From Candidatus Thorarchaeota archaeon (GTDB taxonomy: Archaea; Asgardarchaeota; Heimdallarchaeia; Hodarchaeales; Hodarchaeaceae): DNA of 32,000 nt. Under the pieces are notes generated by a model, which did not search any database, had not been told where the DNA came from, and saw nothing but the letters and a program-made list of their open reading frames with translations. Below, one piece after another: positions 1,656 through 9,023 of the stretch. Made by a program: the position numbers and the translations under genes. Within the stretch, counting starts at the first letter, position 1. Each line of letters opens with the position of its first letter. The stretch is from positions 60,001 through 92,000 of the forward strand of contig JBHLRO010000003.1 of the NCBI GenBank assembly GCA_048882505.1. Reading direction: 5' to 3'.

Positions 1656-3218
1656 TCATTTCTTTTCCCAGCCCTCCACTATCTGCTGGGCCGAACTAAC
1701 ATATTTTTCCAGTTCCTCCTCAGTTCTATAAAGTTTCTTTAGAATCATTCTTTCAAACATGGTACTAAACTGTGTAAGCTCAATTCGATCACTTAACGAG
1801 GGTTCCATGTCTGAGATTTTGTTCCATTTGTCAAGATTCCGACTTAATGCCTTTTTTTCCAGCGAAATTGCGTAAGTAAGCTTTTTCAAGCCTTTTTCCT
1901 GAGAGAGGACTTCAGCCTGTGTTAAAAGTTTCTCTGCATTCTCAATATCCAATTCAAGTAATGCTAGACGTGATTGAAGTAAATAAATTTCCGCTAATAG
2001 CCAGTACGACGATTGTGACTTTGCCACCGTTAATAAACGCGTGATTACCTGTTTTAATTCTTTGAAAACTTCTTCATTCCCTGTTGCCTTTAATTCAAAA
2101 ACCAATAGCTCTCCTAGGTTTAAGAGAGCGTCTATAGTTAATTCATACCAGATTATCGATTCTTCAGCAACCTGTCGAAAAATAATTTGAGCTTCCGTCT
2201 TATCCGTAAGTCTCCCACTCGTCTTGAAGATCATTGCCCTAGCAAGACGCACCTTTTGTTCACTAACAGCAATAAACCTTTTTTTCAACGATTCTTGCAT
2301 TTCCTTGTGTATTTCCTCCCTCTCGTCGGAAGTTAGGTCTTTTACGTAGTACTTGATGGTGTTATACAAAATTTCGACTCTCATTGCATATTCTTGGATG
2401 TTTCTAGATACCTGAAGGGCTTCTTCCAGGTATTTTCTTCCCGAATCAAAATCTCCCTTCATACTATAGGCCTGGCCTATATTGTTGAGCAATCGGCTTA
2501 CGTTGAATTGAGAACCTATGGATTCAAATGCTCTTAAGCTCCTGGTAAAAAATTCCAACGCTGCATTCAATTCCCCTCTTGCGACATTAGTTGCTCCGAT
2601 TCCATTTAGAATATCCGCTGGAATCTGCTGGTTGTCAACCGCATCTAGGAGAGGTAGACTATGTCTAAAGTAGTTAAGGGCTTGATCAAGCTCGCCCTTA
2701 CTCAAATATAAATAACCTAAGCTACCGAGACATCTAACCTTCTGTTCTACGTCGTTGATTTGTTTGCTAAGACCAAAGGCCTTCTCATAATATTTAAGTG
2801 CAGAATCAGGGTTACTGGCCAAATAGTATAATCTTCCGATCTGGTAATAGAAACTGGCCTTCATTCGAAGAGTTTCAAGTTTCTGTCCTTCCAATAGACA
2901 ACTAATAATCTTCTCCTCCTCACTCGCTAGATTTAGCGCCTCTGAAACGTTACCATCTAAACGATGGGCGAGAATGAGATTGTTAAGTGCATCAAATTCC
3001 CTTGCTTTATTACTGACCCTCCTACTTTTTTCTAGTAGCTCAGTTGCGAGTTTTTTTCCTATCCCAGTTTCTCCTAAACGAAGATAAAGGGTACTTCGGA
3101 GAAATAGGGCCAAAAGTTTATCGTTTTCCCCTAAGATATTATCCAGTTGGCTGAGAGCGGTATCAAACTTTTCAAGGAGGCTGATTTCCTCTTTCTGATG
3201 AAAATAATGCTCAAACAA
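1656..3218 (-). CDS. TPR-repeat protein of the Asgard/Heimdallarchaeia type
   Basis: 520 aa with several canonical TPRs (LGSLGYLYLSKGELDQALNYFRHSL; LNGIGATNVARGELNAALEFFTRSL; LNNIGQAYSMKGDFDSGRKYLEEAL). The helical C-terminal region reads LLAEIYLLQSRLALLELDIENAEKLLTQA. Confidence 0.9.
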   Translation of the reverse strand: MFEHYFHQKEEISLLEKFDTALSQLDNILGENDKLLALFLRSTLYLRLGETGIGKKLATELLEKSRRVSNKAREFDALNNLILAHRLDGNVSEALNLASEEEKIISCLLEGQKLETLRMKASFYYQIGRLYYLASNPDSALKYYEKAFGLSKQINDVEQKVRCLGSLGYLYLSKGELDQALNYFRHSLPLLDAVDNQQIPADILNGIGATNVARGELNAALEFFTRSLRAFESIGSQFNVSRLLNNIGQAYSMKGDFDSGRKYLEEALQVSRNIQEYAMRVEILYNTIKYYVKDLTSDEREEIHKEMQESLKKRFIAVSEQKVRLARAMIFKTSGRLTDKTEAQIIFRQVAEESIIWYELTIDALLNLGELLVFELKATGNEEVFKELKQVITRLLTVAKSQSSYWLLAEIYLLQSRLALLELDIENAEKLLTQAEVLSQEKGLKKLTYAISLEKKALSRNLDKWNKISDMEPSLSDRIELTQFSTMFERMILKKLYRTEEELEKYVSSAQQIVEGWEKK

Positions 3219-3439: not shown

Positions 3440-4255
3440 TTACGATTTGTTGAACACACGATTTAAACACTTGATTTTGTTAAGTAATGACTCAGGAATG
3501 TTTGGATTCGAAAAACTGAGGTTTAACAAGTCTTTAAGCGCGCATCGAAACTGCTCAACAAAGTCTTCAGAACTGGAATCCACGGAAGCGAATTCCTCAA
3601 GAGCTGAAGGGAGTAACCTGCAATTGGTCTCATTTAAAAACGCCATCGTTTGATTGAGATTTGCCTCTAGGGCCTGGTACTCAGTTGGATAAAAATTTCC
3701 CATATAATCGGTATCACAATAGTAGAGGAACCCGATCTCCGACTTCAACCAGTGATTATGGTTGTAGTCAAGAAGAATCCTGGACTTCGAAGCGAGATTT
3801 ACAATATCCAAAAGATTTACAATATCCACTTTTTCAGAGAATTCACAAACAGGATAAAATAGAAATTGTTGAAGAGTAATAAAGTATTTCTCGGTATTAA
3901 TGAATAGAGTGGGAGGATAATGATCGCCTAGGGTGGTGATAAGTTGTTCTATCCTTTGTTTTTGATATGCGGGGAGATTTAGGCCAAGGGTTTGGGACGG
4001 GTCCGGCTGAAGACTGCAACGCATTGCATAATGAGCGCACATATCATGGAACGGGGCCTCAAGGACAGTAACAGCCTTTACCAATCCATAATCGGGACGT
4101 GTGACCCTATAAAAGGAGTAGATTCTATGAAGCACATTTAGCGGCGAAAAAAAATCATCTAGTAAGGCAATTACTTCTTTTTGGTCTATATCGGCATTGA
4201 AGGGCCATTGGTGCTTGGTAATCTCAACAGGAAAACCAAACATCTCTGGGTGCAT
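3440..4255 (-). CDS. Hypothetical protein, probable atypical protein-kinase-like fold
   Basis: 271-aa ORF. The motif order HYAMRCS / RIEQLITTLGDHYPPTLF / YFITLQQFL / LASKSRILLDYNHNHWL / FLYYCDTDYMG parallels beta3, alphaC-beta4, hinge, catalytic loop and Mg-binding loop. The fold call is inference. Confidence 0.6.
   Translation of the reverse strand: MHPEMFGFPVEITKHQWPFNADIDQKEVIALLDDFFSPLNVLHRIYSFYRVTRPDYGLVKAVTVLEAPFHDMCAHYAMRCSLQPDPSQTLGLNLPAYQKQRIEQLITTLGDHYPPTLFINTEKYFITLQQFLFYPVCEFSEKVDIVNLLDIVNLASKSRILLDYNHNHWLKSEIGFLYYCDTDYMGNFYPTEYQALEANLNQTMAFLNETNCRLLPSALEEFASVDSSSEDFVEQFRCALKDLLNLSFSNPNIPESLLNKIKCLNRVFNKS
3795..3828. repeat. Tandem direct repeat, 2 x 16 bp, period 18 (in-frame DIVNL duplication)
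   Basis: AGATTTACAATATCCA at 3795-3810 and 3813-3828; the protein reads VDIVNL-LDIVNL. Confidence 0.9.
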
Positions 4256-4682
4256 TTACAAGACCGGATTATAATAGTATTTAAGAAAGTACTCGATTAT
4301 ACTGTTATATCTTGAGTCTTTTTTTCTTTGATTAATATTCGACCCAGAAAATTGGGGATGAATTATTAAGAAATTGTCCCCGTGGGAATTTAATTCTCAT
4401 ACTGAGGAAGGAGCCGTCAGTTATCATCATTACTTGTTCCATTACATTGGACATAACTTGCATCGTTAAATACATTGAAATGATTAACATATTGCGTTAA
4501 ATTCTAATTTCTACCGACCATGGATAGCCTTGGCTATTCAAGATGGCATCTTGTTAAATATATGTCGAAGAAAACTGATTCCTGTATCACATGTTTTATT
4601 CATGATGGTTGGTAAGGTTCATAAGTGAAATATTCCTCATTGAATTTTTTAAAGTGGACCAAATACACTTGTTCGGTTCTTA

Positions 4683-5585
4683 TTGGAAAGGGTACCAATC
4701 AACTTAGGTGACGGAAATTTAGTTTTAAAGGAAGTCGATTCCCTGAAAAGTCTCGCTATCCTGTCTCATAAGGGCGGTGTTGGAAAAACAAGTATTGCTG
4801 TTAACTTAGGTTGCCATCTCGCCAAAATTGGAAAAAATGTCATCATTCTTGATAACGATTTTTCTGGGCCATCGCTAGTAACTTTTTTTCAAAAGAATAC
4901 CTCCGTAAATTGGTTAAACGATTATTTAATGACAGGAGAAAATCTAGATCTTTGTCTTCAAGATGTATCACCCTCATTGGACTTATCAGGTAGGCTGTAT
5001 GTCGGTTTTGCTGATCCAACTCCCGAACGGATTCAAACCATTATTCGAATTGATCAAAAAACCTCCATTGCAATGTTAAGACATCTAATCACCCTAAAAA
5101 AGGCCGTCCGATCTCCGCCATACGATATTGACTACTTAATTGTAGATTGTTCTCCAGGGACAGGGTATAGCACAGTAAATGTCATATTGACCACAGATTC
5201 AAGCTTATTTATTGTCAAATTAAGTAATGCTGACCTTTATGGCACATCTCAAATGATTTCGGGGCTTTACACACAATTGAAGAACCGGACCCTGGTTCTT
5301 GCCAATCTAATACCAAGTAACGTGCTAGTTTCAGGAAACTTATCCCTTATTGAACAACTGATTGAGAAACGATTTACTCAAGAGGTTGGTGACAAAGTTG
5401 TGGAGTTTTTAGGTTGGATTCCGACAGATCTAGAACTTCAAACAGTTGAATTTAATGAAGCGGTGAAGAGCCTTAAGGAACAACCTTCTCAAAGAAATAT
5501 TTTCACGTTGCATAATCCTTCACACATCTTTTCAAGAATTCTGATTGATTTAATTCCGACACTATTTGGAGAGGAAGGCTACTGA
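4683..5585 (+). CDS. MinD/ParA-family (SIMIBI) ATPase
   Basis: Deviant Walker A SHKGGVGKTS, then ILDNDFSGPSL, FADP, and switch II YLIVDCSPGTG. The start may be TTG 4683 or CTG 4743. Confidence 0.92.
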   Translation: MERVPINLGDGNLVLKEVDSLKSLAILSHKGGVGKTSIAVNLGCHLAKIGKNVIILDNDFSGPSLVTFFQKNTSVNWLNDYLMTGENLDLCLQDVSPSLDLSGRLYVGFADPTPERIQTIIRIDQKTSIAMLRHLITLKKAVRSPPYDIDYLIVDCSPGTGYSTVNVILTTDSSLFIVKLSNADLYGTSQMISGLYTQLKNRTLVLANLIPSNVLVSGNLSLIEQLIEKRFTQEVGDKVVEFLGWIPTDLELQTVEFNEAVKSLKEQPSQRNIFTLHNPSHIFSRILIDLIPTLFGEEGY

Positions 5586-6318: not shown

Positions 6319-7287
6319 TTAGTGCAGCTTTGGACGTTGACGTTTGCTCCCCGTCCGTTCATGAACCAAATCATCTCTGAATCCTTCTTTTCCAATGTAC
6401 ATAGATTCAGAAAAAAGCTCACATGGATAGATATCCATCGTTCGATCTTTCAAAAACCCACGAAGGTGATGGGGCAAATAGCCCACGATATTGGTAATTA
6501 TTTCTTCAACATCCACTCGCAGACGATAATTTCTACGGAAAAAGCTGGTTATATTTATGAGATCCGTCCTAAGAAACCTTACAGCCCTATCTATGCGTAT
6601 TCGGATTGGAGTTTCAACAAAGGTTTTGCTGTTGTATTGAACAGACTGACTTACATCCATTGTAACTAATTTTCCCTCTGAATTCACCATTAAGTTGTGT
6701 TCGCTGTAGTCTCCATGGATATATTTTCCATTGATAAATAAACGAGCTAGGATATCAATTGCTTCATCTAAGAAATCTCCAGGATCACCAAATGTTCGTA
6801 AATCGTAATCTTTGAGAAGAGGGGCAGGATTATACGATCCTCTCTTTTCTGGAATGAACTCCATCACGATAATATTGTCATTTAGAAAGTGAGGTTTGGG
6901 TGCAAGAACGTGTTTTGCCATTTCGGACAGGTTCCAAAACTCTTGCTTGGCTGCCAGGCAGGCCATATCGTTAGGTCGCACATGCTTGGTTCCCCGAATT
7001 CGCTTCTTAATTGTGCTAGTAAAATACCGAAAAACCTTACCACACGATAACTGACCATTCTGGTTCTCTGCTAAAAGGACAGTTGCTTCCTTTCCTCCTC
7101 CGATGACCGAGAGTACCTTCTTTATTTTTCCTGTTGCGAGCAGCTGCGCTTTAGCGTCCGCGATGCGGACTTCCTGCAACTGCGTCCTTTGTATAGAAGA
7201 ATGCCGGTATTCTTGCCGAAACGGCCCCGTTTTCTGATAACGCGTATAACCTAATCTTTGATTATGATCAGAGGATATTAGAACCAC
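6319..7287 (-). CDS. rio1: RIO1-family atypical Ser/Thr kinase
   Basis: IGGGKEATV P-loop, CGKVF, AKQEFWNL, VMEFI hinge, HGDYSEHNLMV catalytic loop and MDVSQSV. Confidence 0.92.
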   Translation of the reverse strand: MVLISSDHNQRLGYTRYQKTGPFRQEYRHSSIQRTQLQEVRIADAKAQLLATGKIKKVLSVIGGGKEATVLLAENQNGQLSCGKVFRYFTSTIKKRIRGTKHVRPNDMACLAAKQEFWNLSEMAKHVLAPKPHFLNDNIIVMEFIPEKRGSYNPAPLLKDYDLRTFGDPGDFLDEAIDILARLFINGKYIHGDYSEHNLMVNSEGKLVTMDVSQSVQYNSKTFVETPIRIRIDRAVRFLRTDLINITSFFRRNYRLRVDVEEIITNIVGYLPHHLRGFLKDRTMDIYPCELFSESMYIGKEGFRDDLVHERTGSKRQRPKLH

Positions 7288-7916: not shown

Positions 7917-9023
7917 TTATCCCATAGCACAACGATTTGGACCAATTTCTAATTCTTGGATCTGATCAGGAGCTAAGAATAGTCGTCCGCAATTTATTTG
8001 AACTATGGTTCTGTAAGACGGCGGTTTCTGGATTTTTTTAATACTTTCAACCGCACTCGTTACGAAAATATCCTTTTCAGTTTTATGAACAGGATCCTGA
8101 GTAAAATCTTCTATGGTAGTAATAATCGGTTTATGGAAGTGATCCATGGCGAACTTGCCATGATGGGCCGCAGCGATAAATTCGTTTGCCGGTAGTCTTG
8201 CGATTGTCGTAGTTAATGTGTGGAAAAGATCGCTAGCAAACTCTTCGACCTTGTCCGCGAGATCTGGTCTTCCGATACCGTCAGCAAAGACTGTATCACC
8301 AGTAAATATACCCTGATGCTTTATTCGAATTGTTGTTGATCCTTTAGTATGGCCAGGTGTATGCATTGCTATAATAGAGTAATTTCCAACTTGGATGGAA
8401 TCATTATTTTGCATTGGGGTAAATTCGAAATCGAAAGGATCATACGTGGAGAGACGGAGTTCTGCATCCATTTTGCTAGACAGCTCACGAGCTCCGGAAA
8501 CATGATCTGCATGGCAATGAGTATCGAGAACGTGCGTAACCGTTAAGCCTTCATTGTCAATATAAGCCAGGTATGGTTGGATGTCATAGACCGGGTCAAT
8601 AACCACTGCTTCATCCTCATGCGAAACTATATAGGAAAGGCATCCCTTGGCGATTCTTCGAAATTGCGTAACGCGAAGATTGGGCTCCTTCGTTGGAATT
8701 TGAACCGGGTCAAGAACACTACTCCATTTTTTCAGACCACCACGTAGAGACCGGGCATTTATCCCTTGGGAGCGAAGAATTTTTGCCGCCATGGCGGAAT
8801 CGTTACCACGTGTGCAGATAGTGACGATGTTTCTGTTTTTGAATTCGGTTCCAAGTTCTCGCTTCTCGAATAGCTCCCGGAGTGGCATGTTTTGGCTATC
8901 TAATAGGTTCCAGTCATAAAAGGCCTGGGGAGATCTAACATCGATAAGAGCCAGATCTTCCTGCGCTTGGAGCTTATCGTGTAGTTCCTTGGCCGAGATT
9001 TCCAGAGCTGGATCAAGGTTCAT
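7917..9023 (-). CDS. Rhodanese domain fused to an MBL-fold hydrolase (persulfide dioxygenase-like)
   Basis: N-terminal rhodanese (LIDVRS, active loop CTRGNDS, SLRGGLKKW), then MBL motifs THCHADH, HTPGHT, FTGDTVF, and a C-terminal NRCA. Confidence 0.92.
   Translation of the reverse strand: MNLDPALEISAKELHDKLQAQEDLALIDVRSPQAFYDWNLLDSQNMPLRELFEKRELGTEFKNRNIVTICTRGNDSAMAAKILRSQGINARSLRGGLKKWSSVLDPVQIPTKEPNLRVTQFRRIAKGCLSYIVSHEDEAVVIDPVYDIQPYLAYIDNEGLTVTHVLDTHCHADHVSGARELSSKMDAELRLSTYDPFDFEFTPMQNNDSIQVGNYSIIAMHTPGHTKGSTTIRIKHQGIFTGDTVFADGIGRPDLADKVEEFASDLFHTLTTTIARLPANEFIAAAHHGKFAMDHFHKPIITTIEDFTQDPVHKTEKDIFVTSAVESIKKIQKPPSYRTIVQINCGRLFLAPDQIQELEIGPNRCAMG

Follow-up and report, generated by a model that had tools for sequence, protein, structure and literature searches.

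A protein-kinase-like family restricted to Hodarchaeales with arginine and histidine at two active-site positions

The gene at positions 3440..4255 on the minus strand of the window, the complete stretch of 32,000 nucleotides that was analyzed, encodes a single-domain protein with a protein-kinase-like (PKL) fold, as indicated by the open reading frame, its dN/dS ratio, an AF2 model, and the matches of this model to PKL folds. It belongs to a PKL family that was not described before and is restricted to the Hodarchaeales. Judged from its sequence, the protein should be, with a probability of about 0.6, a functional phosphotransferase of the CAK/APH type that depends on a metal and a nucleotide and probably uses a non-protein acceptor. 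A preceding sequence-only reading had proposed a new atypical kinase or pseudokinase family at this site. The PKL family is indeed new, since no existing model matches it, and an active enzyme is favored over a pseudokinase.

The list of open reading frames of the window contained at this position a frame of 271 amino acids with an ATG start, plus the stop codon. The gene is real and under strong purifying selection, with a dN/dS of 0.073 (dN 0.050, dS 0.68) when compared to the 89%-identical orthologue from the relative G070. The ATG start is well placed because the homologues align from residue 1 of the N terminus. Immediately 5' of this ATG, at 4256..4290 on the minus strand, an A+T-rich stretch was read in the sequence, which may be a TATA-like archaeal promoter that leaves a short leader or none. 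The gene had been called unannotated, and this is correct with respect to function, but close homologues are already deposited as “hypothetical protein.” An 18-nt tandem repeat with 16 of 18 identical nucleotides is located within the gene and does not add length compared to the homologues.

A word-indexed search of 5.8 billion proteins yielded 19 homologues, phmmer, run exhaustively on 1.84 billion representatives, yielded 18, and a profile search of 5.8 billion proteins yielded 50. No relatives beyond the Hodarchaeales were present in the results of the exhaustive phmmer and the profile search. All named matches were proteins from metagenome-assembled genomes (MAGs) labelled Hodarchaeota, Hodarchaeales, or Heimdallarchaeota, and none of them carried a Pfam domain. 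A search for longer homologues, which is weak evidence in this respect, gave no longer, fused forms. On the level of whole genomes, the family profile matched 18 of the 21 genomes of the window's own family-level clade and 0 of 379 other Asgard genomes; the three genomes of the own clade without a match have a completeness of 71-87%. Two matches occurred in 7 genomes, which in one of these involved a gene split across contigs, and the window's own genome contains a single copy. No model of Pfam (20 members scanned at E<=10 and 10 distant ones at E<=1), NCBIfam, PHROGs, or PADLOC matched the window protein or its distant relatives.

All conservation counts given below are based on a set of 67 non-redundant sequences of the family, with identities down to about 20%. 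A maximum-likelihood tree divided the family into four groups, the main clade that includes the window protein, a paralogue clade with a support of 100/100, a clade with P0019, L023, and L026, and a deep clade of 17 sequences.

The AF2 model of the window protein, based on a 20-sequence alignment, reached a pLDDT of 89.2 and a pTM of 0.86. It starts with a strand at residues 11-15, a helix at 25-39, and strands at 47-52, 62-69, and 72-82, continues with a long helix (94-112), two strands (116-120 and 124-130), and a helix at 142-157, and ends with short strands at 169-171 and 177-179 and four helices up to the C terminus. As modeled, this arrangement corresponds to a protein-kinase-like domain whose C-lobe is small and helical and which lacks an activation segment. 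A second model, that of P0048 from the paralogue clade with 36% identity to the window protein, had a pLDDT of 92.1, a pTM of 0.89, and the identical order of elements. Both models contain the bilobal arrangement of the PKL proteins, in which helix C is inserted between strands 3 and 4 of a five-stranded N-lobe and a helical C-lobe bears the catalytic loop and the metal loop.

When the model of the window protein was compared with the PDB by Foldseek, only kinase-fold chains were found among the matches listed (E about 1e-4, probability about 1.0), with TM-scores of 0.3-0.4. A VIA-align run against 48,161 representative chains, which was independent of Foldseek, identified Bud32 4ww5 (Z 10.3, 198 residues aligned, rmsd 4.8), the APH protein 4pdy (Z 10.0, 213 residues aligned, model range 15-271), YihE (Z 9.7), the choline kinase LicA (9.2), TkArkI (9.1), and Rio1 (8.7), and re-ranking of the top 1000 chains of Foldseek agreed with this result. 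The P0048 model matched PKL proteins again, with a Z of 10.5 for 4pdy, 10.0 for YihE, and 9.7-9.9 for Bud32 and RIO, and the rows listed by Foldseek were once more kinase-fold chains only, at a probability of about 1.0. Both models together gave 212-213 aligned residues for 4pdy and Z ranges of 9.0-9.2 for LicA and 8.7-9.7 for RIO1. The top 50 rows of both aligners were nearly all PKL proteins and covered residues 15-271 approximately, with 1-2 NIS synthetases as exceptions. The bilobal PKL fold anticipated from the sequence was therefore recovered in two confident models, with PKL proteins as the top matches by Foldseek and VIA-align. Evaluation of these scores needs to consider that a Z of about 10 at an rmsd of 4-5.5 A is only modestly above the background of 7-8 stated for VIA-align. 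The case for the PKL fold is consequently made by three observations taken together, which are the near-unanimous matches, their coverage of almost the full length, and the sites at which the invariant residues are located.

None of the sequence methods used, that is Pfam, NCBIfam, a profile search of the PDB, and hhalign (E 0.046-0.064), revealed a significant match to a known PKL family. The sole sequence match of the family profile in the PDB, by phmmer and hmmsearch, was the APH-family protein 7s3l with an E value of 0.5. In its register, LLDYNHNHfL...LYYVDtD is aligned with cDvNHNNWL...LYLIDWD, which brings the region of D181 onto “IDWD.” The alignment by hhalign to an Asgard APH profile (E 0.046, probability about 1%) has D163 on HgD and D181 on IDwe. 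Both matches weakly suggest that D163 corresponds to the Asp of the Brenner motif and D181 to the Asp of IDxD/E. An Asgard Bud32 profile gave an E value of 0.064 at a probability of about 1%. The RIO kinase encoded in the window at 6319-7287 gave 0.058, also at about 1%, on unrelated, non-equivalent segments, and this result gives no support to the assumption that the helix ALEANLNQTMAFL of the 3440-4255 protein parallels the peptide FLRTDLINITSFF of this RIO kinase. At most, ALEANLNQTMAFL and FLRTDLINITSFF may both be the alphaF-equivalent helices of their respective domains. The neighbors in a protein-language-model search were all families of the PKL clan, with DUF6206 in 18 of 30 named matches (score 0.95, 171-178 of 256 features shared), followed by APH/RIO1 and WaaY/Kdo. 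Since no HMM of APH, RIO, Bud32, or DUF6206 matched and the defining motifs are altered, the family should be filed at the superfamily level only.

The sequence-level tests, all without significance, and the TM-scores of 0.3-0.4 are what would be expected if the likeness to kinases was an artefact and the protein had an unrelated fold. This is very improbable. Two separately predicted, confident models agree in the order of their elements, nearly all of the top 50 rows of two aligners are PKL proteins aligned along residues 15-271 approximately, the invariant residues are located exactly on the PKL catalytic positions, and the independent language-model search led to PKL-clan families only.

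The positions of the motifs can now be followed along the chain, and all coordinates refer to the minus strand. All peptides that had been quoted as kinase-like motifs are present in the ORF, and each is located in the AF2 model on the structural element guessed for it. R-P-D-Y-G (residues 53-57, 4085..4099) is the loop that connects strands 47-52 and 62-69, the first two core strands of the N-lobe, and it is located where the Gly-rich loop would be expected. A GxGxxG motif is absent there; the loop reads R-P-x-x-G in the family, with only R53 (67/67) and G57 (65/67) being conserved. The equivalent of beta3 is the strand 72-82 (4010..4042), which includes HYAMRCS and, as indicated by alignment, tree, and model, has R79 where the catalytic Lys would be expected. 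This position is occupied by R in 47, K in 14, and E or D in 6 of the 67 sequences. The 14 Lys79 sequences are those of the paralogue clade and the six E/D sequences all belong to one deep subclade. A basic residue in strand 3 as in other PKL proteins (PKA K72) is consequently present as R or K at position 79. The segment RIEQLITTLGDHYPPTLF covers the alphaC-equivalent helix 94-112 (3920..3976) and the beta4 strand 116-120. This helix contains the invariant R101 (67/67), a His at position 98 in most sequences, and the conserved residues L105 and L109. There is no conserved counterpart of the alphaC Glu (PKA E91) in the 67 sequences, and no column of residues 92-113 is more than 60% acidic.

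Beta5, which is the strand 124-130 with ITLQQFL, and the hinge-like segment L-Q-x-F-x-F-x-P-x-C-x-F comprise residues 124-139 (3839..3886), with Q129 conserved in 66, C137 in 64, and F131, P135, and F139 in all 67 sequences. The catalytic loop L-L-D-Y-N-H-N-H-W-L follows at residues 161-170 (3746..3775), between the alphaE-like helix 142-157 and the strand 169-171, as supported by its conservation and by the 7s3l and APH-profile registers. Its family consensus is L-L-D-[YF]-N-x-N-H-[WF]-L, with D163 and N165 in 67, N167 in 65, and H168 in 64 of the 67 sequences. The His of HxD is absent and L161 is in its place. Of the Brenner motif H-x-D-x-x-x-x-N, the family retains the Asp but has Leu for the His at −2 and His for the Asn at +5. 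The Asn at D+5 that characterizes PKL proteins (PKA N171) is present in only three sequences, P0048, P0052, and L022, and H168 in the remaining 64 is a possible metal ligand. Strand beta8 and the metal-binding loop Y-x-D-x-D-Y-M-G occupy residues 177-186 (3698..3727), where YYCDTDY forms the strand 177-179 and the metal loop and where Y179, D181, and D183 are invariant (67/67). In the model, D163 precedes the strand 169-171 and D181 comes after the strand 177-179. Sequence comparison identifies D181 as the equivalent of the DFG Asp and D183 as an acidic residue that replaces the DFG Gly.

Only three columns of the 67 sequences are at least 80% acidic, and these are D163, D181, and D183, each of which is invariant. 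The catalytic Asp (PKA D166) and the metal Asp (PKA D184) of the PKL proteins are thus present as D163 and D181 in all sequences. For the residues D163, H168, and “D180” that had been singled out for a test of conservation, this means that both Asp residues are invariant and that H168 is conserved to 96%, but residue 180 is a Cys and the conserved acidic residues are D181 and D183. A match of these motifs by chance is not in agreement with the invariance of D163, N165, D181, D183, R53, and R101 in the 67 sequences and the 96% conservation of H168.

The helix 192-206 (3638..3682) contains ALEANLNQTMAFL and reads A-L-x-x-N-L-N-Q-x-M-x-F, with N199 in 61, N201 in 58, and Q202 in all 67 sequences. 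It is probably the alphaF equivalent located behind the catalytic loop. Residues 212-270 (3446..3622) form three C-terminal helices (212-223, 227-248, and 255-270) that close the small all-helical C-lobe of the model, with N211 conserved in 67/67 sequences and without an activation segment.

The existence of a Lys79 paralogue clade and of Asn168 in three of its members confirmed that R79 is equivalent to the beta3 Lys and H168 to the Asn of the catalytic loop, exactly as the sequence-only reading had supposed when it noted an Arg for the Lys and D-x4-H for D-x4-N. With Lys79 and Asn168, P0048, P0052, and L022 contain the full canonical K/D/N/D set in the scaffold of this family.

Loss of canonical residues may also indicate a pseudokinase, which would be a PKL fold that acts as a scaffold or as a binding protein for a nucleotide or some other ligand, without phosphate transfer. 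The alphaC Glu, GxGxxG, and the HxD His are all missing, a His has replaced the Asn, and the basic residue at position 79 was lost to E or D in one subclade. Except for the His at D+5, all these points also count against a CAK/APH-type phosphotransferase. A pseudokinase is nevertheless unlikely. The Asp residues of the catalytic base and the metal site are invariant down to about 20% identity, and N165, N167, and H168 are nearly so, which is a pattern typical of maintained chemistry. The exchanges of R for K and H for N keep side chains compatible with function, and almost every “key” residue outside the catalytic core is dispensable in some active PKL family, as shown by Kannan et al. (PMC1821047).

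The combination of R79 with D183 is the pattern of the CAK kinases ChoK and FadE (PMC1821047), which makes an active APH/ChoK-like phosphotransferase the best reading and favors it over a pseudokinase. The residues described as non-canonical are indeed replaced, albeit in a manner less exotic than implied, since this very CAK pattern consists of a strand-3 Arg and an acidic residue in place of the DFG Gly. In such an active phosphotransferase, D163 would be the catalytic base, D181 and H168, the latter instead of the Asn, would hold the divalent metal or metals, and R79 instead of the Lys would position the phosphates of the nucleotide. The invariant R53 at the G-loop position and the invariant R101 of alphaC may assist R79, and D183 would be the acidic companion of the strand-3 Arg, as in CAK kinases. 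A C-lobe that is short, helical, and devoid of an activation segment, combined with the CAK-like motifs, favors a small molecule or another non-protein substrate as acceptor over a classical protein substrate.

The genes around 3440-4255 were also considered. In the window, the PKL gene is flanked by a gene for a TPR protein of 520 aa on the minus strand (1656-3218) and by that for a MinD/ParA-type ATPase with a longin-wHTH partner on the plus strand (4683-5585). The divergent orientation with respect to the MinD-longin operon had been correctly noted, but this arrangement is kept only in the 89%-identical relative G070. The TPR, MinD/longin, and RIO neighbors were absent from 11 other loci with flanks of +/-9 kb. 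A functional tie of the PKL protein to MinD, longin, RIO, or TPR proteins was rejected since these neighbors are common only to G070, and their absence from all other relatives examined indicates that the neighborhood is incidental.

The usual surroundings in the main clade are different. A gene for an N6-adenine methyltransferase of about 680 aa with a fused specificity domain is divergent from the PKL gene. Apart from the window's own pair, 15 main-clade loci were inspected, and in 8 of them a gene for an NTPase_1 protein (THEP1-type, PF03266) begins at a distance of -13 to +18 nt from the stop codon of the PKL gene. The block continues with genes for a response regulator, a GNAT protein, an amidohydrolase, an MBL-fold protein, and an Mrr-like nuclease. 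This block is scattered in the window's genome: the methylase gene is located on contig C1, the NTPase gene on C4, and the remaining genes on C3, at a distance of about 55 kb. The NTPase gene is also not adjacent to the PKL gene in the 284-aa subclade, and no shared neighbors occurred in the inspected loci of the Lys79 paralogue clade. Since the genomes are all close kin, the synteny of the main clade is largely inherited and weak evidence. The pairing of PKL and NTPase_1 genes as a unit is consequently a lead. Interpretation of the block, with its methylase, NTPase, and Mrr genes, as a Pgl/BREX-like defense island was rejected: the PKL protein had no match in PADLOC, the methylase matches ordinary type I/II methyltransferases, and the block is conserved as vertical synteny and scattered in the window's genome.

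The pairing with the NTPase_1 gene would agree with a PKL-fold enzyme that performs non-kinase chemistry or binds its nucleotide in a non-canonical pose, similar to the AMPylation by SelO or to the ATPase switches of the Bud32/RIO/COQ8 style. SelO catalyzes AMPylation with a flipped ATP. Bud32 and RIO rank near the top of the structural matches, and both function as ATPases within RNP complexes. An acidic partner is missing from alphaC, a His prevails at position 98, and the arginines R53 and R101 do not vary in the family. An all-basic N-lobe composed of R53, R79, H98, and R101 that grips phosphates, with the downstream THEP1-type NTPase as a possible partner, is an improbable variant of this explanation. 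It is likewise doubtful that a basic set replaces the Lys-Glu pair and the Gly-rich loop and a His enters the metal site for the sake of non-canonical binding of a nucleotide or an anionic substrate. The outcome would then be a reaction other than the ordinary transfer of the ATP gamma-phosphate, for instance, a SelO-like nucleotidylation or a phosphate-sensing ATPase switch, which is equally hard to credit, and the protein could form a two-gene unit with the THEP1-type NTPase in many Hodarchaeales. Taken as a whole, non-kinase chemistry is rather unlikely, considering that the NTPase gene is unlinked in the window's genome and not adjacent in the 284-aa subclade, that the close kinship of the genomes makes the pairing in 8 of 15 loci weak evidence, and that the likeness to SelO is an analogy.

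The Hodarchaeales have been proposed, among others, as the closest relatives of the eukaryotes within the archaea, and this position makes their lineage-specific inventions in signalling and metabolism interesting. With this family, the protein-kinase-like superfamily gains an orphan branch that was missed by every profile library. It is not a eukaryotic signature protein because it occurs in one family-level clade only, without a eukaryotic counterpart. Paralogues with the canonical Lys and Asn next to the Arg/His form represent a natural experiment and thus a clean system for testing the limits of rewiring of a kinase active site, with the alphaC Glu missing, His instead of Asn, Arg instead of Lys, and the chemistry either kept or changed. 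The practical gain at present is an improved annotation.

Among the known systems, DUF6206 (PF19709), which is found in actinobacteria and phages, has a similar length of about 270-300 aa and forms the nearest named language-model clusters. The PF19709 HMM did not match the window's genome at E<=1 or any member scanned at E<=10, and no literature on DUF6206 was found. Kinship of DUF6206 with the Hodarchaeales family is a lead based on the language-model similarity.

Bud32 and RIO are archaeal and eukaryotic PKL families. Bud32/TP53RK of KEOPS and RIO are PKL domains as minimal and similar in size as the family described here, also without an activation loop, and Bud32 4ww5 (Z 10.3) and Rio1 1zp9 (Z 8.7-9.7) are best or tied-best structural matches. 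In contrast to the family, they keep the Lys, the alphaC Glu, HGD, and D-x4-N. The catalytic loop HGD[LIP]TTSN was present in all Asgard Bud32 proteins extracted; the family has neither this HGDLTTSN loop nor a match to the TIGR03724 HMM or any other NCBIfam model. Similarly, there was no match to the RIO HMM PF01163 and no significant profile similarity to the RIO protein of the window, so that the structural match to RIO is on the level of the fold only. The window's genome contains separate genes for Bud32, on C18, and for RIO. To our knowledge, Bud32 and RIO are universal in the archaea, whereas the PKL family of 3440-4255 is confined to one clade.

Proteins of the CAK/APH type (PF01636 and Choline_kinase, PF01633; 4pdy, YihE/SrkA 1zyl, LicA 4r77, and 7s3l) are bilobal PKL proteins with a helical C-lobe and without an activation segment, as is the family, although the APH and Choline_kinase HMMs did not match it in the Pfam scans of 20 members at E<=10 and of 10 distant ones at E<=1. 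Typical CAK proteins have about 300-350 aa. With 271 aa, the family protein is far smaller and lacks the inserted helical substrate subdomain; it is also distinguished by the lack of the alphaC Glu, an invariant Arg in this helix, and the His at D+5 in 96% of the sequences. A His at D+5 is found in the macrolide 2'-phosphotransferase, an active APH-fold kinase with D200, H205 (D+5), and D219. A figure legend on a macrolide phosphotransferase groups HIS205 with ASP219 and lists ASP200 apart (PMC12159755). CAK-chloro and HSK2 have also lost the alphaC Glu, E91 (PMC1821047). The APH protein 4pdy can be aligned structurally with the family models over nearly the full length, and in 7s3l, the loop D-x-N-H-N-x-W-L and the following [IV]-D-x-D match the family almost residue for residue. 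Strand 3 contains a conserved Lys or Arg throughout the superfamily (Scheeff and Bourne, PMC1261164), and K72 is an Arg in most CAK subfamilies (Kannan et al., PMC1821047). In the active enzymes ChoK and FadE, covariation links this R72 to changes of the Gly-rich loop and to a replacement of the DFG Gly by Glu (PMC1821047). The acidic residue that takes the place of the DFG Gly in these CAK subfamilies (ID-x-E) is represented here by D183, and R79 together with the invariant D181-x-D183 reproduces the likeness to ChoK and FadE, a strand-3 Arg with an acidic residue at the DFG-Gly position (PMC1821047).

Directly after the gene for the protein-kinase-like (PKL) protein, the start of a THEP1-type NTPase gene (Pfam NTPase_1, E 2e-45) was located between −13 and +18 nt from the PKL stop codon in 8 of the 15 main-clade loci inspected, a count that was made apart from the window and its closest orthologue. 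Examples are L021:10050-10580, L029:9924-10445, L095:2360-2908, and L096:3226-3780. This close spacing suggests that both genes are co-translated in these eight loci. The NTPase orthologue in the window's genome resides on a separate contig, at C4:106908-107390. The direct downstream neighbor in the window is a gene on the same strand for a 520-aa TPR protein (1656-3218, minus strand; TPR_12, MalT-like TPR), an adjacency shared by the window and the genome of the closest orthologue, G070, only.

Upstream of the PKL gene and divergent from it, most relatives possess a gene for an N6-adenine DNA methyltransferase of about 680 aa with a type-I specificity-like domain at the C-terminal end (L021:6840-8885, minus strand, with orthologues in other loci). 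Because the copy in the window's genome retained 58% identity at a site unlinked to the PKL gene (C1:265674-267659), the protein resembles a chromosomal methylase that has been conserved, and not the product of a mobile restriction-modification gene. Past the RIO gene of the window, a 368-aa rhodanese-metallo-beta-lactamase fusion (7917-9023, minus strand) looks like an ordinary persulfide-dioxygenase-type architecture.

Within the PKL gene, two adjacent 18-nt units (3794-3829, minus strand; 16 of 18 positions identical) encode VDIVNL-LDIVNL in the alphaE-like helix. Since the homologues are equally long in this region, the pair is no length-changing duplication; it is more diverged in the G070 orthologue, VDIVNL-LDIVYL.

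One deep subclade of the family (P0031, P0057, and P0059 to P0062) contains Glu or Asp at the strand-3 basic position (Y-V-M-E-L). The strand before it has additional Arg residues (G-R-A-R-A-A), and N199 is replaced by Gly. The phosphate-binding charge may have been relocated in these proteins, by analogy to the Wnk and CAK-chloro kinases, for which a shift of this charge to another position has been described.
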